Positions 1,279 to 34,473 of a stretch of 64,000 bases of DNA are shown piece by piece; position 1 is the first letter of the stretch; each line of letters opens with the position of its first letter. Origin of the DNA: Trypanosoma brucei (taxonomy: Eukaryota); contig CP000068.1 in NCBI GenBank assembly GCA_000002445.1, forward strand, positions 128,001-192,000, in the 5' to 3' direction. A program made the translations under genes and the position numbers. The notes under the pieces are model-generated. The model was not told the origin of the DNA and did no database searches. It saw nothing but the letters and a program-made list of their open reading frames with translations.

Positions 1279-2460
1279 TCACTCCCTCAGGTAACTTGGT
1301 GCCTGTTTCCCATTGGTCTCCCCTGCGGCCACATCTTCTTTTGTTCCCGGCCGCCGCTTCCGCAAGAAAAAAATTGTGACAGCGACAATAATGAGGAAAA
1401 GGGGAACGACGGCGCACACCACGTAAATGGCAATACGTGTGCCGCTGGACAACTCGGAGGTTCCTCCTTCGGAAAGTTTATCATCATCCTCAATAACTCC
1501 GTCCTCTTTTTCCGCATCATAATCCTCACCCACTTGTTCCACTTTAAAGTCCTTACCGGGACCAGCGACGGGTTTCAGCGCGGCATCCACATGTTGCACC
1601 TGATCCTTCACTCGGTCAACGGCATTCTGCACCGCCTGACAGGCATCCACGACAGGTTTCATTGCATCAATCGCTTTTTTGTAATGCTCAATCCATCCGC
1701 TCTCATCAACGGTGCATGCAGTTGATGTGAAGTATCCGTCCATTCGACACGCGGTCTCGGCGTATTCATTACGGTGGGTGGGACTCGAAGGCTTTGGTTT
1801 AACATCATTCCACTTTTCCATGGCAGCTCCCATTCCGAGATGATCCAAACCTTTCGGTTGGCCTCTGCACTCGATTTCATAAATGCCTTCACCCACAGAT
1901 TTTGTAGACACACCCCGGCAGTTGTTGTTTTCGTTGTCACTATGCGCGTTACTGGGTTTTTTGGATATGGTCTGGCAATAACTCCTCAACACTTTTCTAA
2001 TGCCGGTGTCTTCCGATTCTCCCACTGCCTTCCTGGCGGGCTCCTTGACTTTTGATATGCCACTTTGAATAACCCCAAGTTGCTTCTCAACTTCCGTCTT
2101 GGCGCTGCCGACAACCGCTAGCGCCTCGTCAAGTTCTTTCTTTGCTTTTTCTACCGCCGCCAGGTCTTTTGATCCCTTCCCGTCTGACAGTTTCTCAAGT
2201 CCCTCGCGCTCCTTCTTTATTAAATCAGTTGCGTTATCGATGTACGTAATCTTGTGTTTCGTATGATTTACGATATTTTTTTCACCCTCCCCCACTGTAT
2301 TCGCAAGAGTGTACAAACTGCATAATATTTTCGCACTATTCGCATCGAAGTGTCCGTCTGCTGGTTGCTGGTTCTCGGCAGAGGCAAATGATACCAAAGT
2401 GAACCAAAACGGCACCAGGAGTTGAAGCGACATCTTCACACGCATGAAATACATATGCAT
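1279..2460 (-). CDS. ISG-like type I transmembrane surface glycoprotein (invariant-surface-glycoprotein-related family), paralog 1
   Basis: 393-aa ORF. N-terminal hydrophobic signal peptide (LQLLVPFWFTLVSFASA). Cys-containing extracellular domain with N-glycosylation sequons. A single C-terminal TM helix (IAIYVVCAVVPLFLIIVAVTIFFL) is followed by a short basic/Lys-containing tail (RKRRPGTKEDVAAGETNGKQ...). Shares conserved blocks with the two downstream paralogs (VLRSYCQT...NNNCRG vs VLTIYCNT...NNNCDDG). The ISG65/75-like assignment comes from architecture and memory, not a search. Confidence 0.55.
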   Translation of the reverse strand: MHMYFMRVKMSLQLLVPFWFTLVSFASAENQQPADGHFDANSAKILCSLYTLANTVGEGEKNIVNHTKHKITYIDNATDLIKKEREGLEKLSDGKGSKDLAAVEKAKKELDEALAVVGSAKTEVEKQLGVIQSGISKVKEPARKAVGESEDTGIRKVLRSYCQTISKKPSNAHSDNENNNCRGVSTKSVGEGIYEIECRGQPKGLDHLGMGAAMEKWNDVKPKPSSPTHRNEYAETACRMDGYFTSTACTVDESGWIEHYKKAIDAMKPVVDACQAVQNAVDRVKDQVQHVDAALKPVAGPGKDFKVEQVGEDYDAEKEDGVIEDDDKLSEGGTSELSSGTRIAIYVVCAVVPLFLIIVAVTIFFLRKRRPGTKEDVAAGETNGKQAPSYLRE

Positions 2461-3025: not shown

Positions 3026-4147
3026 CTAACAATCCTCTTCTTCCTCAGCGACTGCGGAAACGGGAGCGTAAGCACTCTGCACCTTCAAGCTGTTCTTTAT
3101 GCAGCGAAATAGCAAGAAACCGAGAACCAAAAAGAGTAACGAAGCAGTCACCACAATTATGCACGTGACAATGTCCTTCGATATTATTCCGTCTATAGAC
3201 GATTTCAATGACTTCTTCTCATGGTGCTTTCCAGTCGGGGTAGAGGATCGCACCAATTCCTTCAACGCATTCTTGTGCTTTTTCAACTCCTCAGCAGCGT
3301 TATGAACACTTTTTGTTGCCTCCTCCAACTTCTTAAGTTCATGTAGGGAAGAATTATAATCTCCCGTCCATTCCTCCTCAGGCACCGTACACGGACCCTC
3401 TGAAGCATATCCGTGACTTATGCAACTCGCATTCCATTGCTTGCTCGTATGTTTAACAGCTGCAAGCCCCGGTTTTGCACCATCCCAAGCGTTTATTGCA
3501 TTCGACATGGCCTCATATGTGACGTTAGCAGCAGTCACATTATCAGAACCTCCAATACTCTTACAATCAATTTTGAAGGCACCGGCTCCAGCAGCCGCAG
3601 CAATGCCATCGTCGCAGTTATTATTCACATTATGACTCTTCTTACCTTCCTTTGCACCAGTAATTGTTGTATTGCAGTATATCGTCAGTACCTTATTCAT
3701 TCCTTTGCTCTCAGAATCCCCCACTGCCTTTTTTGCGTGTTCCACGGCTTTGCTGGAGGCGTTTGTAATAATTTCATGTTGCTTCTTCACTTCTTCATCA
3801 GCTTTTGCGCTGGCGTTCAACACCGCATCGAGATGCCTCTTTATCGCATCCCCCACCGTTGCGTTCTTTGCTTTTATGGAGTCAACTAACTTACCAACCT
3901 TCTGCCGTGTCCTGTTCAAAGCAGAGGATGTGTTCTGAATAAACTTAATCTTCTGTGCTGTGGTATTTAAAATACCATCCGCAACACTTTGCATGGATCC
4001 CGCAAGGCCATACATGATGCATAATGCCCTAGCTCCTTCTTTATTAAATCTCTTGAGAGCAGGGCGCTGGCCTTTCTCAGCCGCAGCAAATGCAACGGCA
4101 GTAATTACTGATGCCAAAATGTAGGAGTGACGCAATCTTGCGCCCAT
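3026..4147 (-). CDS. ISG-like type I transmembrane surface glycoprotein, paralog 2
   Basis: 373-aa ORF. The first ~60 aa and a central ~150-aa block are identical to paralog 3. Own TM (IVTCIIVVTASLLFLVLGFLLF) and an acidic tail ending ...AVAEEEEDC. An identical 150-bp upstream region is shared with paralog 3. Confidence 0.55.
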   Translation of the reverse strand: MGARLRHSYILASVITAVAFAAAEKGQRPALKRFNKEGARALCIMYGLAGSMQSVADGILNTTAQKIKFIQNTSSALNRTRQKVGKLVDSIKAKNATVGDAIKRHLDAVLNASAKADEEVKKQHEIITNASSKAVEHAKKAVGDSESKGMNKVLTIYCNTTITGAKEGKKSHNVNNNCDDGIAAAAGAGAFKIDCKSIGGSDNVTAANVTYEAMSNAINAWDGAKPGLAAVKHTSKQWNASCISHGYASEGPCTVPEEEWTGDYNSSLHELKKLEEATKSVHNAAEELKKHKNALKELVRSSTPTGKHHEKKSLKSSIDGIISKDIVTCIIVVTASLLFLVLGFLLFRCIKNSLKVQSAYAPVSAVAEEEEDC

Positions 4148-4300
4148 ACCTTTACTACTAGTTTCAACGACACACTAAGCCTGAAATGCAATAACCACAA
4201 CACATCCACATTCATTTTTTTTATACGTACAAATACGTACAAATATATAAACAAGGGGAAAACATTGTATAAAACAGTAATTAGGAGTAACAAAGATGCA
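4148..4300. repeat. Duplicated 5' flank of ISG-like paralog 2 (copy A of a ~150-bp segment shared with 6298-6450)
   Basis: Sequence ctttactactagtttcaacgacacactaagcctgaaatgcaataaccacaacacatccacattcattttttttatacgtacaaatacg...aggagtaacaaagatgcaac is present at both loci, directly upstream of the identical start regions of paralogs 2 and 3. Confidence 0.8.
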
Positions 4301-5163
4301 ACCTAATGAAAGCAATGCACGAAATCAAACGATGCACCAAATGGCACTGTTGAAACACCGCTTTAATCATAAAGTCACGAACCGTATGTTTTCAGTGCAT
4401 GGTGACATGGTGAGTAGACAGGGGAACACTAAGCCAAATGAAAATTTTATGGATTACCACGACACCAACACTGGTCGCAACGGCCACGAAATGAGGAGAG
4501 GGATGCGGGGGGGAGGGGAAAAAAAAAAAAGAAAAAAGAAAAATTAGCAAAACAAAAGATAAAGGGAAGCAACGAAATGATCGAAGCTGGTTATAAGAAG
4601 GAATCCAAAAGAAATCCAACGAAAGAAAGAAATGAAACAAACCAAAACATCTGGCGTGAGTAACATGTTGTGTGAGCATGTCTGTCAGTTTACCCACTAA
4701 TATACAGTAATAAGAAAGATAACCCTCCAAATCCGCCTCAAGAACAAAATCCCTAAAGAAAGGAACGCCTCAATTCAAGTTGCGAAGACACAAAATTGTG
4801 TGAGTGTATTCACCGCACTGTAAACCCACTCCAACAAAAACAACGTAATTCTAACGAAATGACAACGAGTGGACAAAGCGTATAAAATAGGTATGAAAAT
4901 AACAGCAACTATAATCGTAAAGCATAGCAAGACCAACGCATTACGCATTACGAACCCAAGCACACTAACGACAACCTCGTCAAAACATACACATCCAACC
5001 GCTCCACCGCATCGGAAAGGAGAAAGGAGAAAGTCGGCAGACTCATGCACAGGTGACGGAAAATCTTCCGTTGCAAAGAAAAAAAATGAGAGAGAGCGAA
5101 GTCGAGCAAACGAAACACAAAAATAAACAAAAAAAGAACACAAACATTGTAACGGCACGACGA

Positions 5164-6297
5164 CTATATCATGAGTCGAGACCCTGACCTCTTGGTCCCA
5201 AAAGCGCTACCTCTGTTAAACCCGCGACGATTCATTAGCAAAAGTAATACACTAGTTGCGGGCACTATAGCCACAAAGCAAATGGCAACGGCAACAAGAT
5301 AACCAACAATGTCCGTGCCGCGATCCGAACTGTCGGGTGCCGGGACCAATGGTTCCGTAAGAGAATCATTACGATTTAAGTTGGAGGATCGCATCAGCCG
5401 CTGCACCACATCACCCGTCTGCGTTTTCATACCCTCAGCAGCGTTATGAACACTTTTTGTTGCCTCCTCCAACTTCTTAAGTTCATGTAGGGAAGAATTA
5501 TAATCTCCCGTCCATTCCTCCTCAGGCACCGTACACGGACCCTCTGAAGCATATCCGTGACTTATGCAACTCGCATTCCATTGCTTGCTCGTATGTTTAA
5601 CAGCTGCAAGCCCCGGTTTTGCACCATCCCAAGCGTTTATTGCATTCGACATGGCCTCATATGTGACGTTAGCAGCAGTCACATTATCAGAACCTCCAAT
5701 ACTCTTACAATCAATTCTGAAGGCACCGGCTCCAGCAGCCGCAGCAATGCCATCGTCGCAGTTATTATTCACATTATGACTCTTCTTACCTTCCTTTGCA
5801 CCAGTAATTGTTGTATTGCAGTATATCGTCAGTACCTTATTCATTCCTTTGCTCTCAGAATCCCCCACTGCCTTTTTTGCGTGTTCCACGGCTTTGCGGG
5901 AAGCGCCAGCAATAATTTCATGTTGCTCCTTTAGCTTTCTTTGGCCCCAGTCGAGAACTTCAAGTGCATCCTCTAGCTCCTTCTTTGCCCTGCTAAACTT
6001 TGCCGCATCTTCTATTGTCTCACCTTCCTCACGCTCCATCTGAACAACCTCCTCATGCCTAGCTTTAATCAGAACGAATGCTTCTTCAATATAAGCGATT
6101 TTATCGTGCATACTCTTTAAAATACCATCCGCAACACTTTGCATGGATCCCGCAAGGCCATACATGATGCATAATGCCCTAGCTCCTTCTTTATTAAATC
6201 TCTTGAGAGCAGGGCGCTGGCCTTTCTCAGCCGCAGCAAATGCAACGGCAGTAATTACTGATGCCAAAATGTAGGAGTGACGCAATCTTGCGCCCAT
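5164..6297 (-). CDS. ISG-like type I transmembrane surface glycoprotein, paralog 3
   Basis: 377-aa ORF. N-terminus MGARLRHSYILASVITAVAFAAAEKGQRPALKRFNKEGARALCIMYGLAGSMQSVADGIL is identical to paralog 2. The middle segment and C-terminus diverge (TM IVGYLVAVAICFVAIVPATSVLLLL, basic tail MNRRGFNRGSAFGTKRSGSRLMI). Confidence 0.55.
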   Translation of the reverse strand: MGARLRHSYILASVITAVAFAAAEKGQRPALKRFNKEGARALCIMYGLAGSMQSVADGILKSMHDKIAYIEEAFVLIKARHEEVVQMEREEGETIEDAAKFSRAKKELEDALEVLDWGQRKLKEQHEIIAGASRKAVEHAKKAVGDSESKGMNKVLTIYCNTTITGAKEGKKSHNVNNNCDDGIAAAAGAGAFRIDCKSIGGSDNVTAANVTYEAMSNAINAWDGAKPGLAAVKHTSKQWNASCISHGYASEGPCTVPEEEWTGDYNSSLHELKKLEEATKSVHNAAEGMKTQTGDVVQRLMRSSNLNRNDSLTEPLVPAPDSSDRGTDIVGYLVAVAICFVAIVPATSVLLLLMNRRGFNRGSAFGTKRSGSRLMI

Positions 6298-6450
6298 ACC
6301 TTTACTACTAGTTTCAACGACACACTAAGCCTGAAATGCAATAACCACAACACATCCACATTCATTTTTTTTATACGTACAAATACGTACAAATATATAA
6401 ACAAGGGGAAAACATTGTATAAAACAGTAATTAGGAGTAACAAAGATGCA
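6298..6450. repeat. Duplicated 5' flank of ISG-like paralog 3 (copy B)
   Basis: Identical to 4148-4300 by direct comparison. Continues into the 216-bp repeat listed below. Confidence 0.8.
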
Positions 6451-6649
6451 ACAGGTCACAAGTTGAACAAAACAACACGAGCACTAACATAGACTATGCA
6501 TAAATATATATAGATAAATAAAGATAAATATATTTATGCCGAGTGTATGATGTCACGGTAAATAGAGCATGGCATGAAATAAAACTATTACACCATAATG
6601 CTACTGACCTCATACCACTCACGTAACGCTCAGGAACAAAAAAAAGGGG
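6433..6649. repeat. ~216-bp direct repeat, copy 1 (downstream flank of trans-sialidase-like gene / upstream of ISG paralog 3)
   Basis: aggagtaacaaagatgcaacaggtcacaagttgaacaaaacaacacgagcactaacatagactatgcataaatatatatagataaataaag...cgctcaggaacaaaaaaaaggg recurs essentially identically at 9491-9706. Confidence 0.85.
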
Positions 6650-6962
6650 TTGGAACAAAAAAAGAAAATTATATGTATCGTGTCTCACATACAACAGAAC
6701 CACCTTAGATCATGTGATAAAGAGAAAAAAAAAATATAACCGTGCTCTCAGAGTGCCGGAAGCAGTCTACTGATGTCATTAACATCAGAAGAAAACCGGT
6801 AGCACCTGATATGTTATAGTTGACATCCTATTTGTAAAAATAAAATCGTTGAAACATACTCGCTTAAATTTACCGTCTTGAGTCTACCATTAAAGTTATT
6901 AAATGAAATTCATGTCTGCTCGTATTATCCTCCTCACGCTGAAATAACATGGATTATAGACC

Positions 6963-9317
6963 TCATTTCCTTACATCCAGTGTGTCATCAGTGATATCCA
7001 CAGTGTATGGGTTATATCCCGCCGGCATCTGTGGTAATCCCGCACCCGGTCGCATGGCAGCGTTTTGGGCTGCCCTCCGCTGCCGCAATACGAAGAACCC
7101 AACCAAACCAAGCACGATAAGTAACGCTGGGACCACTACAGCCGCAATCCATGCCAGGTTGCGACCACCCGATTTACCGCCTTGACCATCCCCATGATCT
7201 CCATTATCCTCATCCTCGTCTTCCAAGACAGCATCAAATGTACTTCTGTGCTTTACTGCAAGTAGCGCCTTCACATCAGCTACGCTTAGCTCATGGCTGT
7301 ACAAAAGCATGTTGAATACGGTAACACTCAGGTCGCCAGTTGCCTCACCCTTTCCGATCACTCGCTCGTTGGCTCCAACATATATCTCGTGTATCTCTGC
7401 CGACTGCGACAACGGCACAATACTGCCCTGACCATCCCCTACACGATTCCCGTCAATGTACGTATGGGCAACGCCGCCTCGCACGGTCAAGACAACCTGG
7501 TAGGTTTTCCCCTCTTCCAGAGCGAGTGTTTTGGCGCCAGCTGTCGTACCACTCAATTGGGTCCACGCCTTTTCGTCGTACCAGATACCCACGTCTGCAA
7601 TTAAGCCGGATTTGTTCCTCACGCCCACTCCAAGAAGTGGAGTGGGGTTCTTTGGTGCCTTATGGACGGCCACGCTCATCACGACTGTCAGCCCGTTGTC
7701 AATCAAATGGTACACTTTATTCTCATTTTTGCCAGATACGGGAAATACAACATGTGCGGCGCGTGTGCCCAAAGTGAAACCGGTGGTGACCCTCTTTACA
7801 GGGCCTTGTAGCGCACCATCCATGCCAAGGTATCCGTCACGCCAATGCGTGCGGTTGGCCACTTCAGACCAAAACCCAACGAGGCCCACCGTTGGGTCAA
7901 ACTTTGGCGCTGACGTGCTCTCCTCGCCCGTAGTGCCATAAAGCGCCATCACACTCCCGTCCACCTTCCTCCACAAACCCACCACTGCCTTCAGTTCATG
8001 CACACGGTCGGTGAGGTCGGTAAAGAAAATGCTTTTCAACTGGCTGAAACCCTCCTCATGCAGGGAGTACAGCCCACTCTCAGTGTGCAGGAGGGCGCTA
8101 AAAGATAACATGGATAAATGACCAGAGGAAATCGCCCCGAGGCAATGCGTCCGCTTGCTATCCGTCACCCAAAGGAGGAGCGGCCTCAATCCCGCATTCC
8201 CTGAATTGAAGAAGGCGCGGTAAGCAAATAGGATCACATCCGACCCATCCACCTTCATGTTCACGAAGTCACCTCGGTCGTCGTCATCGGAGTGATACTG
8301 GAAATTGGACAGTGCGTGCCTTTCACCCTCCGTAGCGTCAGTCCACGTCATCCCCACGTCTACGGATCGATACATCTTGTTTTTCGTCTGGTGTGCAACT
8401 ACAAGCAGCAATTCCTTCTTCCACACAAGCAGGCTGGGCTCCGTGCAATCGTCGATGTCCAGTTTAGCCGGGGTGAAGCTCCATGACTCACTCTCGTGCT
8501 TATAACGCGCAATAACGCATGTCTTAGCCCCACTCTCAGCGGACGCGACGAGAGGGAAAAGTATGGTGTCGCCCACAACAGCACCCTTTCCACCACTCTC
8601 GAAGAATTCCTTCCATGAGTGCTCCAATAGCGGCCTCTTGAACGTATCAGTCAGCGATGAAGGCTTATTCCACTTCACAACCTTGCCATCTTCCGCACCG
8701 CGGCCGCCGATAGTGCCCACGAAAAGCTTCACCTCCAAGTCGAACGCACCCTCTTGAGGTTCTACATCCTTCGCCTTGTTGCTGCTGAGTGAAAGAAGGA
8801 AAATCTTATCCTTCAGTACTATTGCCCTGGGGCCGTATTGAGCGTAGCGATGATCGGCCACCGGCTCATTCACGAAAACATTCTCAGTCTTCCATTTTTT
8901 CTCTGACATCCAACCCGCCGCCTGTGCGCTCTGGTGAGTCTCGCCAAGTGCAATAGTCTTTAGCCACACTCCGGCGTATCCGGCAGTCCACGCGTTATAT
9001 CGTGCTTCAGCGAGGGCAACAACACTCCCACCCACCGCCACGAGTGAATTACCTTCGAATAAACCGTGTTTCACATCATGACTCGAGTCACTGTGCGACA
9101 ACAAACTTTCTCTATTCCACGGTTTGAATAATTCCACCCTCCGCTTCTCAACTCCTGCAGGTTGGGAAGATGAGCCATTACTGCACACGGGGAGCAAAAG
9201 GACTGAAGCAACCAATAGTAGTAATGGTGTGTGCATCCTTTTGTAACTTTTCTCCCGTGTAGGGAAGTCATCTTTCATCCATACTCTCATGCTGGTACCT
9301 GGCTCCTGCAAATGCAC
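6963..9317 (-). CDS. Trans-sialidase/sialidase-superfamily protein, membrane-anchored, probably non-catalytic
   Basis: 784-aa ORF. The signal peptide probably starts at the internal Met (MHTPLLLLVASVLLLPVCSNG, near 9236). N-terminal RRVELFKPW resembles the TS N-terminus. One Asp-box SxDxGxTW (YRSVDVGMTWTD). C-terminal lectin-like domain carries the family motif VTVxNxxLYxxxL (VTVFNMLLYSHEL). C-terminal TM (IAAVVVPALLIVLGLVGFFVL) plus a 40-aa cytoplasmic tail. The FRIP motif position reads FEGN, i.e. the Arg is missing. Confidence 0.7.
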   Translation of the reverse strand: MHLQEPGTSMRVWMKDDFPTREKSYKRMHTPLLLLVASVLLLPVCSNGSSSQPAGVEKRRVELFKPWNRESLLSHSDSSHDVKHGLFEGNSLVAVGGSVVALAEARYNAWTAGYAGVWLKTIALGETHQSAQAAGWMSEKKWKTENVFVNEPVADHRYAQYGPRAIVLKDKIFLLSLSSNKAKDVEPQEGAFDLEVKLFVGTIGGRGAEDGKVVKWNKPSSLTDTFKRPLLEHSWKEFFESGGKGAVVGDTILFPLVASAESGAKTCVIARYKHESESWSFTPAKLDIDDCTEPSLLVWKKELLLVVAHQTKNKMYRSVDVGMTWTDATEGERHALSNFQYHSDDDDRGDFVNMKVDGSDVILFAYRAFFNSGNAGLRPLLLWVTDSKRTHCLGAISSGHLSMLSFSALLHTESGLYSLHEEGFSQLKSIFFTDLTDRVHELKAVVGLWRKVDGSVMALYGTTGEESTSAPKFDPTVGLVGFWSEVANRTHWRDGYLGMDGALQGPVKRVTTGFTLGTRAAHVVFPVSGKNENKVYHLIDNGLTVVMSVAVHKAPKNPTPLLGVGVRNKSGLIADVGIWYDEKAWTQLSGTTAGAKTLALEEGKTYQVVLTVRGGVAHTYIDGNRVGDGQGSIVPLSQSAEIHEIYVGANERVIGKGEATGDLSVTVFNMLLYSHELSVADVKALLAVKHRSTFDAVLEDEDEDNGDHGDGQGGKSGGRNLAWIAAVVVPALLIVLGLVGFFVLRQRRAAQNAAMRPGAGLPQMPAGYNPYTVDITDDTLDVRK

Positions 9318-9490
9318 GGGTTATATTCCGATAAAATTCCCCACGTTATCTTTTCACAATAATCGTCACTTGAGTCAGGCCTTCCGTCTATGAGGCGCGT
9401 TAGGCTCTGTATTATTTCACTGTAGGCGATCACTTGCTTTTCTTGTGTGAATGTCTGAATAAAAGTTAATTAAAAGCAAATGAAAATTAT

Positions 9491-9706
9491 AGGAGTAACA
9501 AAGATGCAACAGGTCACAAGTTGAACAAAACAACACGAGCACTAACATAGACTATGCATAAATATATATAGATAAATAAAGATAAATATATTTATGCCGA
9601 GTGTATGATGTCACGGTAAATAGAGCATGGCATGAAATAAAACTATTACACCATAATGCTACTGACCTCATACCACTCACGTAACGCTCAGGAACAAAAA
9701 AAAGGG
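9491..9706. repeat. ~216-bp direct repeat, copy 2 (upstream flank of trans-sialidase-like gene)
   Basis: Identical to 6433-6649 by direct comparison. Together the two copies bracket the trans-sialidase-like ORF. Confidence 0.85.
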
Positions 9707-10372
9707 AGCTGGAATAGAAGAGGTTAAGAAACACGCGTTGCAGTGCTCATCCCAATTCGTGTTAAAGCTACATGGGGGGAAAAAATGATATAATAAATGC
9801 AAACATGAAGAATGTCACTAACACTATTCTTGAGAGCGCTGTTGATTTTACTACTGGAAATCTTCTTCAAGAGTGGCAAGTTGATTTGCATTGATGTTTT
9901 TATACCTCCAATAACAACACCTTAAAGGTAGAACCCCTATTGTTTCCCTCCTTCGCGTCGCAGCAGAGTAACAAAAATGGTTTTGTCCATCAGACATATT
10001 ACGGAAAAAAGTGAAAGCAAATACATTCCATTTTGTTTCTTTTCAAACACAAAAAAAAAACAGATGGAAAAAAAAATACCAATACCAATATGATTCCGGA
10101 CACTTTTGCAAGTTATTGAGGTTGTCAATATCCTCATCTCGCAAAAAATTCAGGCATTCCCAAGTGTTAACCTTATGAGCCGAAATCTTCACATTATTTT
10201 TAAATAAAAAAAAATAAAAATAAAAAAAACAGCACGGACAGGGGCCCCCAACACATGTGTCCCCCACCCCCGGGCCCTCCCAGCCCTCTTTCCTTCAAAT
10301 AGAAACGACAACAAACCTCTTCACACATTCGCCTCCTTCGCAATGCTATGGAACACGAGGGGAAAAAAACAG

Positions 10373-11450: not shown

Positions 11451-12941
11451 TTAGTTCCAATTCCGCACGATCTTTCCGTCCCAGTTCAACTTCTCCCCCT
11501 TCTGCATGGCGTAGTAGCGATGCGTCTTCCAGCGACGCCAAGGTGAACCCGACTTACCCCAATGCGGGTTTGCTTCCCAGTATTTCTCAATACGCTCCTG
11601 CAACAGCGGCGTGAAGTGGCGGGCCAAACCCTGCACGGGCCATGCCGCTGCGGTTGCCAACGCACAGATGGTTCGCCCCTCCAGTTGTTTAGACACATCG
11701 AGCATGGTTCCAACCTCTTCCATACGTGCGTTACCGTGGACGAAGCGTTGCATCATCTTTTCGAGCCATGGGCTTCCTTCACGGCATGGCGTACACTGGC
11801 CACATGACTCATGGGCATAAAACATAGATAAGCGATGGATAGCCGCGATAAGGTCGGTAGATTTATCCATCACTATCACCGCTGCGGTGCCGAGGCCTGT
11901 TTGCGCCTCCTTCAGCGCATCGAAATCCATGAGGACGTTATCACAAATGCTCTTTGGAATAAGAGGACAAGAAGAGCCACCAGGAATGACAGCGAGGAGA
12001 TTGTCCCATCCACCCCGCACGCCACCAGCATGACGCTCAATGAGGTCCCGCAAAGGAATACTCATCTCCTCCTCTACTGTACAGGGCCGGTTGACGTGAC
12101 CGCAAATGCAGAACAGTTTTACCCCAGCATTGTTGCGTCGACCAAATGAATTAAACCACGACGGGCCGCGCCGGAGGATTGTTGGTGACACGGACACGGT
12201 CTCCACATTTGTCACAGTGGTGGGACACCCATAAAGACCGACATTGGCCGGAAAAGGGGGTTTAAGACGTGGCTTTCCTGGTCCACCTTCAATGCTTGAA
12301 ATCATCGCAGTTTCCTCCCCACAGATGTACGCTCCCGCACCGCAGTAAGTGTATAAATCAAAATCGTAACCGCTTCCGCATGCATTGCGGCCCAAGTAAC
12401 CCCGCGCATACGCCTCTTTAATTGCCTGATCCACAGCCCTCCACTCATTGTAAAACTCGCCTCGTATGTAAATGTAACCGTAACGCGCCCGCATGGCAAA
12501 ACCTGCAATGAGAGCCCCCTCTACCAATTTGTGTGGTTCATGCCGCATAATCTCTCGATCCTTACACGTCCCTGGTTCCGATTCATCTCCATTAACGACG
12601 ATGTAACTTGGGCGGCCGTCAGGTTTGGATTTTGGCATGAAGGACCATTTGAGTCCCGATGGGAAACCGGCTCCGCCGCGGCCACGGAGTCCACTGGCCT
12701 TAATTTCATTTATAACCCAGTCGTGTCCCTTCAACAGCAAATCGCGGGTACGATACCAATCCCCTCGTCGCTCAGCACTATCAATATCTGTGCCAAAATC
12801 CTGATAAAGATTAACAAAAATGCGGTCCTGATCCTTCAATCCACCGTGTACCCGCTGCTCCTGCTGAGTTGGTGGTGGTTGAGAAGCTGCTGCCTGAAGC
12901 AAAGACCCCGTAGCGGAAAGAAAACCCACACGCCGGAGCAT
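11451..12941 (-). CDS. NDUFV1: NADH dehydrogenase (ubiquinone) flavoprotein 1, 51-kDa subunit of respiratory complex I (NuoF homolog)
   Basis: 496-aa ORF. Contains the diagnostic NAD/FMN-binding region [19 protein letters not shown], and 4Fe-4S cysteine cluster residues near [13 protein letters not shown]-terminal presequence-like region. Confidence 0.85.
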
Positions 12942-13079: not shown

Positions 13080-14106
13080 CCGCGGGCTACGAGCAATAAA
13101 AATTCTGAACGATTTAGTCGCTGCTATTGTTGTTCTTGTTGCTCCCTTGATGATTATAATGATGATGATAATGATGTATATACACACGCGCCCACCTAAC
13201 AGGCACACTACAACTAATTACTACGACTATTAGAAATGATATCTTCCACTACCGCTGCGACTACTGACTGTACACGAAAAAATAAAAATAAAAATAAAAA
13301 AAGAAAATCCGCTACAACCACCACCGTCTTTCCCACACTTTATTTTTTTTTCTCCTTCTCCTTTCTCGCCCTTCGCTTCCTTCTAATAAACTCGGACAAA
13401 ATGTGGAGTCGTGACTGTCTCTTCGTTCTCTTGTGTGTTTTCCTCTATTATTGTTATTATTCTTTTTTTTTTTCTCTCTTCCTTTACTTTTCTTTACTGC
13501 CCTTTGGCGTGGTTGAATCCGCTATTTCCCTAAATGTTGGTTGGGAAGACTTAAGGGCAGGCGGGAAAGAAGGAAGGAAATAGCAGAAAAAAAAAAAAAA
13601 CTCTGCTTCGTCCCGCACAACAAAACACGCGCACGCACCTAATGTAAACCTTCCACTAGTGGACGGATGTTTTTTTTTTACAAAAAAGAAAAAAAAAGTC
13701 ACATGAATAAATGAAAGAGAAAAAGTAAAAGTAAAAAAAAAAAGAGAGAGAAATAGAAACACAGAGATATGAAGCGAGAAAGTAGAGAAAACGAAAAAAA
13801 TTCATACACCATGCAGGCAAACAGCAAACAAGAAATTACCGCAGTAACATAACGGTTGGACGCAAAATACCAATCGTACACCATTATTATTATTTGGCAC
13901 TCTCTCACCCCAAAAAAAAAAAAAACAAAGGTGCCATAAACAACTCATCAAAAATAACAGGAAAAGTAGAAAATAAATAAATAAACATGGAGTGCAATGT
14001 GAAGCCACACCGCAAAGCGCCGTACAGCACGGTTTGTAGTGGGAGCAAATGTAATCATTTGGCAACAATGCAAAATGGTGAAGGGTTGATGTTTGGCAGT
14101 GGTATT

Positions 14107-14117
<11 letters not shown>

Positions 14118-14142
<25 letters not shown>

Positions 14143-14143
14143 T
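14118..14143. repeat. (AT)n microsatellite preceded by (AC)4
   Basis: Read directly. Confidence 0.9.
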
Positions 14144-14421
14144 CAAATATGCATTTACGTACAAGAAAAATGCACACATGTCCGTGTGTGATGCTTTCCA
14201 GTGGGTGAACAATCATCAAATATGTCTACTCAAATTTTACAAGAAAAAAAATCCTGCAGATGGGCACAAATCAGGCAGCCGTGCACCTTTCCAGTAGAAT
14301 ATCATAAGGCAGCAGCAACACATGCGGTAATTAAAGATGTATTCGAAAAATAAAATAAAAATAAAATAAGCTTTATTCCCTCGCCAAACATCATCTCGCA
14401 CCATATCAAGTTGCATTTCCC

Positions 14422-14754
14422 TCATCCTCCTTCATTACCATCACTGCTATTGTTGTTGTTGTTATTATTATTATTATTAATATTATTATTGTTGTGATGA
14501 GTCCAGTTGGGGAGACACCCCGCGAGATGTTGCGCCTGGCAGCTGTGAAATTGTTCCGTAGCTTCCACACAATTTGGAGCCCAAAAACCCTCCACTTCAA
14601 TGCAACGCTGCGCAATGGCCCTCAACTCAACACATGGCGTAATTTCCTCCTGTTCTGCAAGCCGACGCTTAAAACCCTCCGGAACTTCCTCCCAAGGCAT
14701 TTGCCGGCCATTACCCACCGCATAAGTCGTACCGCCACCCTTCAATACAACCAT
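14422..14754 (-). CDS. Small twin-Cx9C (CHCH-domain) protein, putative mitochondrial intermembrane-space protein
   Basis: 110-aa ORF whose first ~85 aa are high-complexity. Two Cx9C pairs: CVELRAIAQRC and CVEATEQFHSC, separated by ~10 aa. The C-terminus runs into a poly-Asn tract encoded by an (AAT/ATT)n microsatellite. The true start may be the internal Met (MPWEEV...). Confidence 0.5.
   Translation of the reverse strand: MVVLKGGGTTYAVGNGRQMPWEEVPEGFKRRLAEQEEITPCVELRAIAQRCIEVEGFWAPNCVEATEQFHSCQAQHLAGCLPNWTHHNNNNINNNNNNNNNNSSDGNEGG
14450..14492. repeat. (TTG/TTA)n trinucleotide microsatellite (encodes poly-Asn at C-terminus of the Cx9C ORF)
   Basis: ttgttgttgttgttattattattattattaatattattatt read directly. 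Confidence 0.9.
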
Positions 14755-17421
14755 AATAACTTCTTTTATTTTTATTTTTATTTTTATTTTATTTTGCCGT
14801 TCTTCTTCTTCCTCTTCCTCCTCACAAGCACTGCCGATATGAAATTAAAAGTATCTAATTGATCAACTAATTAATTAAAATAACTAATGAACTAATGAAC
14901 TAATACGTTGGGGTTAATTGTGGTGAAATGGCCAGAATGAAACAGAGTGATGAGGGTTTAATTAATAAATAAACAAACCCAAACACCCGTACACTTCAGT
15001 TAATGAAGTTATTTCTTCCCTTCAGTCCTTTATTGGACTGAAGCCGTGTGTAACTTAATAACTTGCATATATGACACAACACACAGCAAAAAGAAAAAAA
15101 AGGAAGGAGAAAAAAAGTAAAGAAAAGTAAAGACTTGCGTTACAACACACAACAGCGCAATCATGAAGCACTCCAGCGTCAAAAAAATAAGGTGGAGTTA
15201 CAAATCTTATTTTGTAACCGTCTTTTTTTCTTTAAATAATAACAATAATAATAATTTGTTTATGTATTATTGTTGTTGTTGTTGTTTCTTTATTATTATT
15301 ATTATTTTCCTTTCCTTCATTTGACAGACCTGATACGGCCGAATTGGCTGGCCGCCGGGTGTAGAAAGTAAACCATTTTGGGACATAAACATAAAATTAA
15401 TTAATTAATTAGAAGAAGAGGAGGAGGAAAAAAAAAAAGAGGCATAACGAAAGTGACATTTACTCACTTTGCTGCTCACTCAAAATAAAACAAAACAAAA
15501 AAGAAAAGAAAAGAAAAGAGTTGGGGCACACCGCATTTCCTCATTAATAAAATATTCCTTTGGATTTGTTTTTTTTCTTTTTCTTTTCTTCTCTTCTTTT
15601 GTGTGCGCTGGCGAAGTTCCGCTGATGGGGGAGAAAAGAGAGGAAAAAAAAAAAGAGAAAAAGAAAAACAGGGATTTGTTCCCAAAGAAAAATAAATTAA
15701 ATAAACATGTGAATGGAAGGAGGGAGAAACAAAAAAAACAAATAAATAAATAATAATAATAAAAAGAAAGAAAGAGGGGCCACTGAGACAATTTGCTGCC
15801 ACAAAGAGGAATCCCTCATATCCACTCCCTTTTATTTCCTTCCATTACTAAATCTTTTTTTTTTCGCTTCGTTTCGTTTTTGTTTTTGTTTCGTTTCGTT
15901 TTTGTTGTTAAAAAAAAAAAAAAAGAGGAACGTGTCAGAAATGAGTAAATGATTTAAGGGAATCTTAAATAAATAAATGCATGGGAAATGTTGAGGATGA
16001 TTTGATACCGACGACATATCGCCCATTTATTTTTTGTTGTCGTTTGCTTTTCTTTTTCTTTTTCTTTTTTTCTTTTTTTTTTCAAGAAAAAAAAACTGCG
16101 CGCGATATTCCCTTTATTTATTCATTCATTCATTCTCACTTTAATTCGTACCTATCCGTATGATGATAATAATAATAATAATAACAACATTAATTATTAT
16201 ATTGAAATGCTATACCTTGAAATAGTAGTAGGTAATGATAATAAAATAGATTTTTTTTAAAAAATAAAAACACAACACACAACACACAACACGCCACCAA
16301 ATCATATGAAACGTAATAAAATATCAACAGCAGAAATAATAATAATGTTTGTTGCCGTTTCATATCGCATAATATATTTTACGCATGGACCTGCAGCAGG
16401 AGGTTTAAATGAGGCATTTTGGGAGATAATTCGGGCTGAAAGTCTCGAAAAAATGAAGAATAAAAAAATAGAATAAAAAAAACCGTCAAAAGGTGAGTTG
16501 TGAAGCATTGCAATGCAGCGAAGACGCAGCGATATAAATAAATATAAATATATGATAAATAAAATGATAATGATATAAACAAATCATTTTATTTTACCTT
16601 ATTTTAATATCTTCCTCTTTCCCCTCCAGTGTGCAGTTACGCATGTCCATTTTCTACCATAAACACAATAAACAACACATCTTTTATTTATTTATTTTTT
16701 TCTTTTCTTTTCTTTTCCTTTAAAATTTTTTTAAAAAAAAAAAATTATGTTTAGGCTGCAGGTCATCCCACCCACCCATTTCAAACACTAATTCGTTTTT
16801 GGTTTTGTTTTTTTTTTTAATTTTCCCTCCTCTTTATTTCCTCTGCTTGCGTTGTTAAAATCATACAACCTCTTAATTATTTTCAGCACTCTGACAAAAA
16901 CCAACAGAGGTGCGAAATAAATATTTTTCTCCCTCACGCGTCTCCTCTATTTTTTTTTTCACAAATAAAATAAAAGAAATTCATCAGGTCACTTCACCAT
17001 CTACAAATTATTAATTATTTTTCCTTTGATTTGCTTCGTTATTGACGTTACTATCACACTTTTTTTTTCTTTTTCCTTTTTGAACTACAGCCAACTGGGT
17101 TGTTCATTCTCCGAAACAAAAAAAAACAATAAAAATAAATAAAAATAAAGTGGCTAAATTATAAACAAACACTTTCACCACAATGTCACCCACTTGCAAA
17201 CTTATACTCACACACTCACAATCTCACATACACAGAAACATATAAATATATAAATATATATAATATTTCTTTTTAAAATTTCTCAGCTTCCCATTCCAGA
17301 AATGCCGGTAAACATCTCCTCCTCCTCCTCTACTTTATTCTCTTTTTTTTTCTTCTTTTTTTCTTCTTTTTTTCTTCCTTCACCACATGCACTTCTTTTT
17401 ATTATACTTTCCCCTCATCTC

Positions 17422-19164
17422 TCACATAATCTCAACAAGTTTTGTCTTCCGTGCCGCCAAAACAATACCGGACCGCTTGGAACGCCATAATGTTGCGTAA
17501 CACACAAGCGCTGATAATGTCATGGAAACACTCATCACAACACACACAAACGCATAACTCCCATTATTACGAAGTTGAATAGTTGCTTGCATGGGAGGTG
17601 CCACAAAACCACCCACCACACCTGCGAGAAATACAGCACCAAAATAAAAACCCAAATTAGGTCCATACAAATGCGTAGCGATAAGAGTTGGCATCACGGC
17701 AAACATACCCGCCATGCAGAAACCAATGATGCAAAGCAACAACGCAAAGGCAACGTAACTGCGGCCAAGGGCGAGAAGGCCACAACCGATACCACCAACA
17801 GTAGCACAGAAAACATATGCAAATTCAGCAGTAACTAATGAGGCGAGCCAACCAACAAGTACGGAACCAACAACTTGAAAGACACCATAAAAAGTGAAGA
17901 GGGTGGCGGCAACATCAGTTGGAATGGGCGGTACACCTGCATAAACAGTGCCTGGTTTACCCATAGACGAAATGTAAGGCACGGCTGCGTAAATGAGCGA
18001 GTAAAAAGCCCAACTGTATATGAACCAGCAAAGAAAGTTACCCATGAAAGGGAGAGTAAACATAGAGAGGAATAGTTCCCATGGTGTGAGCTTGTGGGTG
18101 TGGAGACTGCGTATTACCTGTGGTTCGTCTGCATCCATACTTGTATCCATATCAACATCAATAGCAGATGCAAAGGTGTTGTTCCTTTGACTTTGTTCAG
18201 TAACGTCCAAACCCTCACCATCATTCCCATTTTGCTGATTCGTGCCCACACCCCTCCCGTTAGGTGGAACCTTTGAGGTGTTGGTATGGCTGCCATTTTT
18301 CCTGCCCATTTCCCTCACGTCTTCTTTACCTTCATTGTGTCCATTATTCGCTGCTCCTTCTCCCCCCACAGTTGCCGGTTCATTACTTCTTCTGACCAAA
18401 CTTCCATTACCGGATTTATTTCCTTCCCGGGTTTCATCATCAGCGCTGCTGTCGTCTCTTTTGGGTTCACGGCGGCGAGCGGAAAGGGCGGTTGCGAGCA
18501 CTCCAATCGCACAAAATATCGACATAAGTTGAAAAGCCTTACGCCAGCCATATGCAACAACCCATTTCCCTGCTAATGGTGGAATAATGGCACTTCCAAT
18601 ACCTCCACCAGCAAAGTTAATTCCCATAGCCAGTCCCTGATAACGATTGAACCAAGAACTAGTTGCAGCAGCCCCAGGTGATAACATACATGCCGTACCA
18701 ATAGATGCAAAAAGGCAGTAAGTAAAAGTTACAACATAAATGTTCGCGGCGAGGGTTGAACTGATCCACAAACCAGTGAAGAGCAAAATGGTGGAAAGCG
18801 CCATCATGAACCGCGGCGGGAGCCGATCGACACAAAATCCTGCGAGAACACCAAAGGCAGGTGAAAGCCCCAACGAAACGGAATTTCCAAGACTAATTGC
18901 CGTTATGGAGGGAAACCCAAGTGACGGATCATTGTGCATATCCTCTGAGAAAATGGAATAACTGTTGTCAATACCATATGACATCAGTTGCATCAACAAC
19001 CCCGAAAGGGCCACGAGGTAACCGATTGGGTGGTCGGCGGGTTTACGGGTGAAACTTGGAAGCATAACTTTTTGCTTTTCTTCTTCTTTTCCGTATATAT
19101 TTAATATATATATATATATATACTTTCTGCTTATGCTCGTATTGGTATTCCGTTTCTCACCCAC
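17422..19164 (-). CDS. Major facilitator superfamily (MFS) transporter
   Basis: 580-aa ORF with ~12 predicted hydrophobic helices in two 6-helix halves. These are split by a long hydrophilic, N/G-rich central loop. The true start is likely the internal Met MLPSFTRKPADHP; the preceding residues are low-complexity. Confidence 0.7.
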   Translation of the reverse strand: MGEKRNTNTSISRKYIYIYILNIYGKEEEKQKVMLPSFTRKPADHPIGYLVALSGLLMQLMSYGIDNSYSIFSEDMHNDPSLGFPSITAISLGNSVSLGLSPAFGVLAGFCVDRLPPRFMMALSTILLFTGLWISSTLAANIYVVTFTYCLFASIGTACMLSPGAAATSSWFNRYQGLAMGINFAGGGIGSAIIPPLAGKWVVAYGWRKAFQLMSIFCAIGVLATALSARRREPKRDDSSADDETREGNKSGNGSLVRRSNEPATVGGEGAANNGHNEGKEDVREMGRKNGSHTNTSKVPPNGRGVGTNQQNGNDGEGLDVTEQSQRNNTFASAIDVDMDTSMDADEPQVIRSLHTHKLTPWELFLSMFTLPFMGNFLCWFIYSWAFYSLIYAAVPYISSMGKPGTVYAGVPPIPTDVAATLFTFYGVFQVVGSVLVGWLASLVTAEFAYVFCATVGGIGCGLLALGRSYVAFALLLCIIGFCMAGMFAVMPTLIATHLYGPNLGFYFGAVFLAGVVGGFVAPPMQATIQLRNNGSYAFVCVVMSVSMTLSALVCYATLWRSKRSGIVLAARKTKLVEIM

Positions 19165-19658
19165 ACTGCTTTTTTTTGTTTTATTTTGTTTTGTTTGTTC
19201 TGCTTGACTTTATTTTATTTTTTTTTATTATTATTATTTTTTTTTTTCCTTCACCCCCTTCAACTTACACTCCGCGCCTCTCTCCCTTAATTCAATGTGT
19301 AATGTTGTATCCCCGGGTTCCTTCTCGTCTTAATGTAAATTTGATGGGCACTTCGGTGTGATTTACAGATTTCAACTGAATATATAAGTGAACACGCCAC
19401 CACTTATTGAATAATACGAAACGGAAACGGCAGCGACTCCACAACAAATATGTTGCTGTCAGTAACACTTCAAGTTCTTTACTTCACTGTTTTACTAATA
19501 CGCTTGATTGATTTGTTTGTTTGTTTGTTTCGTTATTGTTATTGTTATTGCTATTCTTCACTTTGGTATGATTATCACTTGTGTAGCTCCCCTAATATTG
19601 TCCAGTTGTTTGCTTTAAAATAATATCTTACTATTCATTTTGTATTTATATTTGTGTG

Positions 19659-19681
19659 CATGTGTGTGTGTGTGTGTGTGT
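19659..19681. repeat. (TG)n microsatellite
   Basis: Read directly. Confidence 0.9.
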
Positions 19682-19782
19682 TTTTTAATTTTGAATTTGT
19701 GTAACCCACGTAATGTCAACGACAGTAGTGGAAATAAAGTTAATTTGTTTTGTTCAAAGAAAGTTAAGAAAAAAAAAATCCG

Positions 19783-19808
19783 AGAGGAGAGGAGAGGAGA
19801 GGAGAGGA
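19783..19808. repeat. (GGAGA)n pentanucleotide repeat
   Basis: gagaggagaggagaggagaggagagg read directly. Confidence 0.9.
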
Positions 19809-20180
19809 AATTGCATGACATGAATTACAGAACACCTACTTTTGGTTTATGTTTCTCCAAGAAAGAAAGAAAAAGAAAAAAAAAGAAAATCAATCACTTT
19901 TCCCAATGAGAAAAATATTTACAATCTCTAATTTTCTCCATACGTGTCTCTTCTCTCATAATCTTCCCAATATTTATATTTATATATGCTTTCAGACAGA
20001 AAAACGGGCATTAAAATAAATACAAAATGATAAGGTGTAATAAGGAAAGATAATGAAAACGACGAGAAAGCAAAAAAAAAAAAACTTCAAAGAAAAAAAC
20101 TTAAAGAGGATAGACAAAGATAAAGATATATGCTTCCATGCCCACGCAAAAGGAAGTTTATGTGTATGAAAGGGAGAGAG

Positions 20181-20206
20181 AGACAAGACAAGACAAGACA
20201 AGACAA
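20181..20206. repeat. (AGACA)n pentanucleotide repeat
   Basis: agacaagacaagacaagacaagacaa read directly. Confidence 0.9.
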
Positions 20207-21690
20207 AGGAAAGAAAAGAGAAGATAAAAAGAAGATAAAAAGAAAAAAAGGAATGAAAGAAAACACTGAGACTGAGGCTTCAGAGCCTAACGGTCGGAGG
20301 AGAAGTAAATATTTTTTTTTTAAAACAAAAAAAAGGTAAAGAAGGAACGCATGACGAGATGTGCAATCACTTGCATATAAATGTTGATCATAATTATTAT
20401 CGCACATGCATGCATAAATGCATATAAATATAAATATATATATATATTTATATTTATATTATTTGTGTGACCACTACACATGACGTGGGGAGGCAAAAAA
20501 AAAAAAAAGTAGCTGTTTAAAATACAACATATGACGCGAAGAGCAAAAAGAACCATCACCAAAAACTCAAGGTTCTCACAAGAACAAATTAAAAAAAGAA
20601 AAAAGAAAAAAAGAGAAACCAACAACTATCCCTAATAGGAATATAATACTTTAGAGATGAGACGTCTCTCCCTTCTGTTTCTTCTCACTTGAACCCACAT
20701 GTGGTGCGCTTCATTTCTGATGTTAAATCACGTCATTATAAATTTTTAAAACATGTACCGCCACCATCACCAGCGCGTTTCCCTCCTCCCCCCTCCTCCT
20801 CCGTTATTTTCTTTTTTTTTTAAAAATAAATACACGCGTATCCCTTAATTATTTCCCTTAACCAAATGCATTCCCCTCATTCAAAAATCACTTATCATTT
20901 CCCCATTTTTTTCATCGGCACTTTTGGCGCTTTTGGCGTTGTTTTATTCTCTGCTTTTTTTTTTCTCTTTTCAACATTGCGGTCAGTTGATTGGTTCCGT
21001 TATTTCTTCAATGAGTCACATTCATATATATATTTTTTTTATTTTATTTTATTTTTTCTCACGCCCTCACACAACCAGACACACATCCAAGTGCGTTTAT
21101 ATATATATATATATACATGTATTTATGTATTTATATGAGCGTCTTCTTTTCTTTTCTTTTTCTTTCCTCCTTTCCGAAACATTTAATCAAATATTCGCTA
21201 CACGTTTTATCATCTCTCTTTCTCTCGTTTTCTTTCCTCTTTTTTTTTCTTTTATTTTTCCATCCTCCTCGCTTCATATTGTGCCGTACACCTCTCTAAG
21301 CAGCGTTTAAAAAAAAAAAAAAAGACGAAAAACAAAACAAAACAATCACACACATTTTTTTTTTAAAAATCATTTTTTGCGCTCGCGCTGTTTTGGCGTT
21401 TCCAAACAAACGCATGGGGTTAAATGCGCACATACGCACATACGCACGTATGTAGTCATAAGAAAAAAAAAAACACACAGAACAGCAAATTATAAATAAT
21501 AAATAACGGTAAGAAGCAACAAAAACTATTATAATAATTTTGAAAAAGAAAAATAAAAAAAAGAAAAAAAAACAATCACCTGCAAATCGAAATCTCGAAG
21601 GAAAGGGGGAAAAGGAAAGAAAGAGAGAAAGAAAACAATGCGAACACAGACACATACACGCGTGCATATGCAAATACGCAACCATGTAAG

Positions 21691-21820
21691 TAAATATATA
21701 TAAATAAATAAATATTTATATTTATATATTTATATATATTTATATATATTTATATATTTATATATTTATATTTATATATTTATATATTTATATATATTTA
21801 TATTTATATATATATATACA
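21691..21820. repeat. AT-only minisatellite, unit ~TATATATTTA (8-10 bp), ~13 units
   Basis: tttatatatttatatatatttatatatatttatatatttatatattta... lies directly 3' of the RING-finger gene stop. Confidence 0.85.
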
Positions 21821-21850
21821 TACCATTACACCTTTGTAGGAAATACTAAC

Positions 21851-32044: not shown

Positions 32045-32133
32045 ACACCCCGCACTACCACCGCAGTGTAACGGATTGTATACACTACTGGCGTATGATA
32101 AACAAAGTGAAGTTATCTACAAACTCGCGTACG

Positions 32134-32151
32134 TATATATATATATATATT
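32134..32151. repeat. (TA)n microsatellite
   Basis: Read directly. Confidence 0.85.
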
Positions 32152-34089: not shown

Positions 34090-34473
34090 TCACTTCAATG
34101 CTTCAGGCCTTGCAATAAGCACCGTTTCGTAATGGCTGCGGCAATACAAATCCCAATAGAAAAGTCCCCACGTCCAACATCCCACCGCCAATGCTGCACA
34201 ATACAACGGCGTAATGGTCAACAAATTCACAAAATGTGGAATGGCAAATAACCCGCCGAGGTCGAGCTTGCGGACGAGTTCATAATTCATGAAAGCGGCT
34301 TCATTTCTTGCGCCCACTTCTGCGCCTTTAGCACTGGCCTCATATGCATGAGAAGAGCGAACATGCGCATGCATCGGTTGCATGGATGTTTTTGGTTCCG
34401 TCACTGCCGCAGATGAGAGACGTACCCGAGACGGAGCAGTTGCAGTGGCAAGTCGAATGATTGAGCGCCGCAT
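34090..34473 (-). CDS. Small hypothetical protein with mitochondrial-presequence-like N-terminus and one/two TM segments
   Basis: 127-aa ORF. Arg/Ser/Thr/Ala-rich N-terminus (MRRSIIRLATATAPSRVRLSSAAV). C-terminal hydrophobic stretch (LGGLFAIPHFVNLLTITPLYCAALAVGCWTWGLFYW). Isolated in a ~4.8-kb region that otherwise lacks ORFs. Confidence 0.4.
   Translation of the reverse strand: MRRSIIRLATATAPSRVRLSSAAVTEPKTSMQPMHAHVRSSHAYEASAKGAEVGARNEAAFMNYELVRKLDLGGLFAIPHFVNLLTITPLYCAALAVGCWTWGLFYWDLYCRSHYETVLIARPEALK

Follow-up and report, generated by a model that had tools for sequence, protein, structure and literature searches.

How two adjacent coding sequences can be exact copies of each other in some segments and beyond recognition in others is the question raised by Tb927.5.420 and Tb927.5.430, two tandem genes on chromosome 5 of Trypanosoma brucei brucei TREU927 that encode type I membrane proteins of the ISG65-75 family. 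The genes lie within a stretch of 64 kb, referred to here as the window, to whose numbering the positions below refer. They are themselves already annotated, and their open reading frame (ORF) translations match GenBank entries XP_844716 (Tb927.5.420) and XP_844717 (Tb927.5.430) exactly. An initial annotation, made from the letters of the window, had described the pair as a patchwork and attributed it to segmental gene conversion. From the analysis reported here we concluded that Tb927.5.420 and Tb927.5.430 are very probably old tandem ISG65-75 paralogs that have been partly homogenized by repeated short, non-reciprocal gene conversion.

The mosaic was mapped by BLASTN and by MAFFT/global alignment of both gene regions in gene orientation, i.e. 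along the minus strand (Table 1). Two tracts of near identity, termed Block A and Block B, alternate with two diverged segments, V1 and V2, with a short transition zone between V1 and Block B. Block A had been described as identity over the first ~190 bp of the genes and ~150 bp of upstream flank, and the measured tract (182 bp of coding sequence (CDS) and 155 bp of flank, no mismatch) closely agrees with this. Its codons 1–61 comprise the signal peptide and the first part of helix 1, while flanks more than 155 bp 5′ of the ATG are unrelated between the two genes. The V1 pair (170 and 174 bp) shares 41% nucleotide and 21% amino-acid identity. The next ~200 bp had thus rightly been seen as strongly diverged, but the term 'unrelated' was too strong, as identities of 51%, 49%, and 28% at codon positions 1, 2, and 3 point to segments that are homologous but saturated. 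The second tract, announced as ~460 bp of identity from the motif KQHEII onwards, was recovered as a block of 465 bp; however, it contains a single mismatch (AAA/AGA, K192 in Tb927.5.420 and R194 in Tb927.5.430), and KQHEII itself is located in the non-identical transition zone. The identity blocks have sharp borders, as had been proposed, except that Block B fades out on its 3′ side over a short gradient, with roughly 63% identity across about 19 codons before similarity ends. No similarity between the genes was found by alignment in the linker, the transmembrane helix, the cytoplasmic tail, the stop codon, and the 3′ flank, in line with the earlier description of wholly different transmembrane helices and tails. 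Divergence is clearly not uniform along the pair. In a permutation test with 10,000 column shuffles, the longest identical run within the CDS was 284 positions, compared to 21.5 on average and at most 52 in the shuffles; with the 5′ flank counted, the longest run reaches 337. The identity tracts are therefore far beyond what is expected for evenly spread differences.

The initial annotation had pointed to the syntenic loci of other T. brucei-group genomes for comparison. We compared both paralogs of each genome from TREU927 (the window), T. b. gambiense DAL972 (L001), and the PacBio assembly of T. b. equiperdum IVM-t1 (L002), the latter being collinear with the window over 13 kb. The two-gene mosaic was reproduced in all three assemblies. 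Within Block B, a single site separates the two paralogs of TREU927 and none those of DAL972, compared to 4–5 sites between TREU927 and DAL972. At sites 3737, 3459, and 3341, the paralogs agree within TREU927 and within DAL972, but the base is not the same in the two strains; site 3502 carries a derived base in both IVM-t1 copies, and the DAL972 replacements I162V, A230V, and H269Q are present in both paralog proteins. Block A displays the same behavior at sites 4282 and 4258, where lineage-specific substitutions are common to both paralogs of a genome. These strain-specific substitutions in both paralogs show that conversion went on after the strains had diverged. At two further sites of Block A, 4142 and 4058, the bases are paralog-specific in DAL972 and IVM-t1, and both TREU927 copies show the Tb927.5.430 state, indicating a conversion from Tb927.5.430 to Tb927.5.420 in the TREU927 lineage. 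Sequence variation in Tb927.5.420 also occurs within that strain: Tb927.5.420b, from the alternative TREU927 haplotype (P0007), differs by I44V and K192R. The K192/R194 mismatch is hence polymorphic, the Tb927.5.420b allele and the copy of T. equiperdum OVI both carrying the Tb927.5.430 state.

Outside the tracts, the sequences group by paralog. All 12 paralog-specific differences of the transition zone are fixed in every genome compared, V1 displays no difference among the TREU927, DAL972, and IVM-t1 orthologues, and V1 and V2 together are nearly unchanged between orthologues (0–2 differences). Since neither the transition differences nor any part of V1 varies between strains in either paralog, the mosaic borders are stable. 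Segmental gene conversion between the tandem copies is thus supported by concerted substitutions within Blocks A and B as well as by fixed differences between them.

In two T. equiperdum genomes the Tb927.5.430 position has peculiarities of its own. The IVM-t1 orthologue carries a 1-bp deletion (GGAACA to GG-ACA) at about position 8250 of L002 (window ~5885), resulting in a frameshift at about codon 136, and no gene is called there; this is either a real pseudogene in a tsetse-independent lineage or a PacBio error. In the T. equiperdum OVI assembly (L003), a 10-N gap at 9609–9618 occupies the place where Tb927.5.430 and its flanks (window 4530–6648) would be expected. A loss of Tb927.5.430 in OVI was considered and rejected, as the break falls exactly on this gap. 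The gap, together with the Tb927.5.430-type base in the OVI copy of Tb927.5.420, suggests a collapsed repeat.

We then turned to the age and origin of the diverged segments. The V1 identity between Tb927.5.420 and Tb927.5.430 lies below that of either gene with Tb927.5.410 (47% and 53%), the third and distant paralog of the array, and the divergent parts of the two genes differ from each other as much as from Tb927.5.410. The latter has 27–28% amino-acid identity to the pair and about 50% nucleotide identity in every segment, and is not involved in the conversion. A recent conversion from Tb927.5.410 into V1 of Tb927.5.430 was rejected because of the 53% nucleotide identity there. To search for other donors, Tb927.5.430 and a profile built from all three paralogs were used as queries against predicted proteins in libraries of 5.8 billion sequences and 1.84 billion representatives, which included the TREU927 and DAL972 proteomes. 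No donor of V1 or V2 was found in these protein libraries, and only orthologues matched the segments; more distant matches were two T. congolense proteins, ISG65, ISG64-like proteins, and T. vivax ISGs. The C-terminal 87 residues of Tb927.5.420 as sole query returned nothing, not even the protein itself, and this search was therefore too insensitive. The T. congolense homologue P0013 shares 31% identity in V1 and 31% in V2 with Tb927.5.430, compared to 24% and 18% with Tb927.5.420, and the transmembrane helix and tail of Tb927.5.430 resemble those of P0013. V2 of Tb927.5.420 has 9–18% identity to every relative examined. We concluded that the divergent segments are old, retained sequence, with Tb927.5.420 as the more derived copy. 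The initial annotation had spoken of 'swapped tails'. This description was not upheld: because synonymous sites are saturated, no donor is detectable in the protein libraries, and the Tb927.5.430 transmembrane helix and tail are T. congolense-like, the tails were retained and the identical blocks are the part that was overwritten.

The alternative that fares best reverses this history. Tb927.5.420 and Tb927.5.430 would be recent whole-gene tandem duplicates, in one of which V1 and V2, along with the 3′ flank, were later replaced from an ectopic ISG-family sequence. Ectopic conversion has been described for the ISG75 array (PMC1855330), and V1 and V2 of Tb927.5.420 stand apart from all relatives examined (9–27% identity). 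However, only orthologues match V1 and V2 in the protein libraries, a recent duplication of the whole unit would not predict unrelated outer 5′ and 3′ flanks, and it is in the identical blocks that the comparison of strains reveals overwriting. We therefore regard such an import as unlikely. Still less probable, to the point of being very improbable, is that recent duplicates diverged in place within V1 and V2 under very strong diversifying selection, e.g. by host immunity or ligands. While the opposite V1 charges (+6 and -7) and the unequal number of glycosylation sequons (six and none) could be adaptive, V1 third codon positions are at a random level of 0.28 with first and second positions at about 0.5. 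Such saturation does not allow for recent divergence under selection; in addition, the non-coding flanks are equally unrelated and V1 is unchanged among TREU927, DAL972, and IVM-t1. Finally, an assembly chimera, named in the initial annotation as what would undo its reading, or a collapsed repeat in the reference is scarcely credible, since, even though short-read assemblies do break here, as seen in the N gap of T. equiperdum OVI, three independent assemblies (TREU927, DAL972, and PacBio IVM-t1) carry the identical mosaic with its paralog-specific single-nucleotide polymorphisms (SNPs), and the two genes have been separately reported as bloodstream-upregulated transcripts (PMC2443814).

For the partial homogenization of old paralogs, the most likely mechanism would be RAD51-type homologous recombination between misaligned tandem copies, sister chromatids, or homologues. 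Conversion tracts of a few hundred bp would start within the identical blocks and abort where identity drops to about 40%, by which two tracts of 337 bp and 465 bp would be kept near-identical. We infer that V1, V2, and the outer flanks (about 40–45% identical) are too diverged for strand exchange and that conversion stops there, which would render the borders self-sustaining; selection may reinforce them. Abortion at diverged sequence fits the strict dependence of T. brucei homologous recombination on substrate length and its impediment by mismatches (PMC1904282), as well as the limits that structural heterogeneity sets to concerted evolution of T. brucei arrays (PMC1855330). The outcome would be two type I membrane glycoproteins that have the signal peptide, the 5′ untranslated region (UTR), and the membrane-distal half in common, whereas each has its own membrane-proximal bundle end, linker, transmembrane helix, tail, and 3′UTR; differences in ligand, glycosylation, trafficking, turnover, or mRNA regulation may result.

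Several points weigh against this interpretation. The three assemblies in which both genes are resolved are all haploid consensus sequences. The donor searches covered predicted proteins, and unannotated or subtelomeric pseudogene donors for V1 and V2 are possible. T. congolense seems to have a single type of gene related to the pair: contig CAEQ01001743 of strain IL3000 (L004) carries one 420/430-like gene at 1806–2930, upstream of which the C-terminal end of a Tb927.5.410-like gene is located (2–105), an order opposite to that in T. brucei (430, 420, 410). No second 420/430-like copy occurs within 1.7 kb downstream on this contig, and the duplication may thus either predate or follow the split between T. 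congolense and T. brucei. The borders, lastly, may be kept either by selection or by mere lack of homology.

A third tract is located directly upstream of Tb927.5.430. The region is part of a 225-bp repeat, of which the second copy lies 5′ of the trans-sialidase-like gene Tb927.5.440 (99.1% identity; Table 1). A 21-bp sequence, GTTGCATCTTTGTTACTCCTA, is common to the upstream regions of three genes (4282–4302, 6432–6452, and 9490–9510) and marks precisely where Block A ends on its 5′ side. The repeat copies of DAL972 and those of IVM-t1 are distinct, with a 7-bp indel and several SNPs between them, indicating that the repeat has been homogenized recently by conversion in the TREU927 lineage only.

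To place the mosaic on the encoded proteins, we examined family membership, predicted fold, and topology. Both proteins match PF11727 (ISG65-75) with 311.5 and 311.0 bits at a cut-off of 25.1, covering profile positions 2–281 of 281. AlphaFold2 models of Tb927.5.420 and Tb927.5.430 (mean confidence, pLDDT, 77.5 and 74.8) are alike in architecture; in Tb927.5.420 numbering, helix 1 (36–94) is followed by a tight turn, helix 2 (96–142), a cysteine-rich region (149–245), helix 3 (260–302), a low-confidence linker, and the transmembrane helix. Foldseek retrieved ISG65 (8ovb_C, E = 1.3e-10, target TM-score 0.75) and ISG75 (8rd2, E = 1e-6), and a sequence profile matches ISG65 structures at E of about 1e-19. 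Cysteines C43, C158, C178, C195, C242, and C253 are invariant or nearly so. Hydropathy peaks at 2.9 (aa 326–347) in Tb927.5.420 and at 2.7 (aa 330–355) in Tb927.5.430, and a signal peptide was called by inspection of MGARLRHSYILASVITAVAFAAA/EKG. Both proteins thus display the profile match, the three-helix bundle with cysteine-rich head, and the type I topology of the ISG65-75 family.

In ISG65, the loops that connect helix 2 to the final long helix build up the membrane-distal head. By this arrangement, the membrane-proximal end of the bundle, the ligand site of ISG65, would be formed by V1 together with the transition zone and the first part of V2. Blocks A and B would account for the signal peptide, the distal half of both helix 1 and helix 2, the head, and the larger part of helix 3. 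This placement in three dimensions was deduced from the order of secondary-structure elements and from the ISG65 topology in the literature rather than from measured distances. In an approximate alignment (23% identity), the ISG65 contact residues R77 and K97 map within V1, and Y293 and E302 map to the border of Block B and V2. R77 and Y293, which contact the thioester-containing domain of complement C3, align to gaps. As the linker is, in addition, only ~25–40 residues long compared to 73 in ISG65, Tb927.5.420 and Tb927.5.430 are not to be called C3 receptors. V1 and the transition zone of Tb927.5.420 contain six N-X-S/T sequons and have a net charge of +6, while those of Tb927.5.430 contain none and have a net charge of -7. 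This larger difference between the ectodomains had been missed by the initial annotation.

The cytoplasmic tails differ as well. The tail of Tb927.5.420 has 2 lysines and a net charge of -2, and that of Tb927.5.430 has 1 lysine and a net charge of +6 (sequences in Table 1). ISG65 and ISG75 tails contain 3–5 lysines, and the transmembrane helix plus tail of ISG75 suffices for deubiquitinase-dependent stabilization (PMC4619645). By analogy to this role of tail lysines and of the ISG75 anchor, unlike turnover or localization of the two products, as the initial annotation had suggested, is plausible. At the mRNA level, the Block A flank harbors a polypyrimidine tract and AG dinucleotides 5′ of the ATG, and both mRNAs probably have the splice site and 5′UTR in common, whereas their 3′UTRs would be unrelated. 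Tb927.5.420 and Tb927.5.430 have each been reported as 'ISG65-like' mRNA upregulated in bloodstream forms (PMC2443814), and Tb927.5.430 is listed in a ribosome-profiling table (PMC4210626).

It is a doubtful further step to regard the mosaic as a selectively maintained two-module design, in which signal peptide and distal head are common and the membrane-proximal end, transmembrane helix, tail, and 3′UTR are kept apart. If so, the pair might present a shared exposed antigenic or decoy face and appear alike to antibodies, while acting as two receptors that bind different ligands or are shielded differently by glycans, and that are unlike in trafficking or turnover. The pair represents a natural domain swap, with identical heads and different stalks, anchors, tails, and 3′UTRs, and would be well suited to trace ligand, glycosylation, surface residence, and turnover of an ISG-type receptor to individual parts of the protein. 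It also provides a compact, datable case of gene conversion coexisting with divergence inside one ORF of the trypanosome surface-gene arrays.

Concerted evolution by allelic and ectopic gene conversion has been demonstrated across T. brucei tandem arrays in a survey that covered those of ISG65 and ISG75 as well as chimeric PGK genes (Jackson 2007; PMC1855330). As in these arrays, Tb927.5.420 and Tb927.5.430 are tandem paralogs of one polycistron that are homogenized in concert within a genome, and conversion is limited by structural heterogeneity and by intergenic or UTR sequence that has been remodelled; that work describes a tandem pair related to ISG75 as 'concerted at the N-terminus'. In contrast to these arrays, Tb927.5.420 and Tb927.5.430 alternate two tracts with two saturated segments within one ORF, and their borders are identical across subspecies. 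The Tb927.5.410–430 array is mentioned neither in Jackson 2007 nor in the supplements examined, and the papers found to cite the gene IDs do not discuss the mosaic. The pair therefore adds a new, clean, and well-resolved case to a process that is well documented for T. brucei tandem arrays, and it does not overturn the existing view. In the PGK A/B/C and THT1/THT2 arrays (PMC1855330), conversion between tandem copies likewise resulted in chimeric genes whose products are mostly shared and in which the differing segment sets localization or stage-specific expression. The functional consequence was demonstrated there, whereas it would be a matter of inference for Tb927.5.420 and Tb927.5.430. Mosaic VSG genes of the same organism (PMC13233330) are similar in that short, homology-bounded conversion tracts give rise to patchwork surface-protein genes; they yield new antigenic variants during infection, while conversion in Tb927.5.420 and Tb927.5.430 removes variation and the product is strain-invariant.

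Among characterized proteins, the complement C3 receptor ISG65 (7pi6, 7zgj, 8ovb; PMC9424271, PMC10140031) has the ISG65-75 domain with three-helix bundle and cysteine-rich head, the type I topology, and the short tail in common with the pair, and the family cysteines that form disulphides in ISG65 are also conserved in Tb927.5.420 and Tb927.5.430. It differs in its overall sequence (about 23% identity), its linker (73 residues, PMC9424271, compared to about 25–40), and the number of tail lysines (3–4, PMC4619645, compared to 1–2). A small ISG-family protein from chromosome 5 of T. b. gambiense, TbgISG43 (Tbg972.5.200), has been biophysically characterized (PMC11065263).

Table 1. Position of mosaic segments, repeats, and genes at the Tb927.5.410–440 locus (window coordinates).
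Feature	Position	Strand	Description
Block A, Tb927.5.420 copy	3966..4302	-	155 bp of 5′ flank and codons 1–61 (182 bp CDS); 337/337 identical to 6116–6452
Block A, Tb927.5.430 copy	6116..6452	-	Partner of 3966–4302, 0 mismatches
V1, Tb927.5.420	3796..3965	-	Codons 62–117; C-terminal half of helix 1, turn, N-terminal half of helix 2
V1, Tb927.5.430	5942..6115	-	Structural position as in V1 of Tb927.5.420
Transition zone, Tb927.5.420	3754..3795	-	Partner 5898–5941; 12 differences in 42 bp
Block B, Tb927.5.420 copy	3289..3753	-	Codons 132–286; end of helix 2, cysteine-rich head, most of helix 3
Block B, Tb927.5.430 copy	5433..5897	-	464/465 identical to 3289–3753
V2, Tb927.5.420	3026..3288	-	End of helix 3, linker, transmembrane helix (aa 326–347, nt 3107–3172), 26-aa tail RCIKNSLKVQSAYAPVSAVAEEEEDC
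V2, Tb927.5.430	5164..5432	-	Linker, transmembrane helix (aa 330–355, nt 5233–5310), 22-aa tail NRRGFNRGSAFGTKRSGSRLMI
Upstream repeat of Tb927.5.430	6432..6655	-	Overlaps Block A by the 21-bp junction 6432–6452
Upstream repeat partner	9490..9714	-	5′ of trans-sialidase gene Tb927.5.440
Tb927.5.410	1279..2460	-	393 aa; third, distant ISG-like paralog of the array; Pfam PF11727 match
Tb927.5.420 CDS	3026..4147	-	373 aa; ISG65-75 family type I membrane protein ('paralog 2'); PF11727 E = 6e-93
Tb927.5.430 CDS	5164..6297	-	377 aa; ISG65-75 family type I membrane protein ('paralog 3'); PF11727 E = 9e-93
Tb927.5.440, trans-sialidase-like gene	6963..9317	-	
51-kDa complex I subunit gene	11451..12941	-	

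Five minus-strand genes occur at the locus (Table 1), and the ORF translations agree exactly with the GenBank proteins so named. Tb927.5.410, Tb927.5.420, and Tb927.5.430 match PF11727 at E of about 1e-88 to 1e-93, and no further ISG65-75 family members were found in the window. Elsewhere in the window, G+C content is low at 14001–22000 and 32001–36000 (0.32–0.40, compared to 0.45–0.56 in the rest). A perfect 29-bp inverted match connects positions 14108–14136 with 35199–35227, two AT-rich parts that are located far apart.

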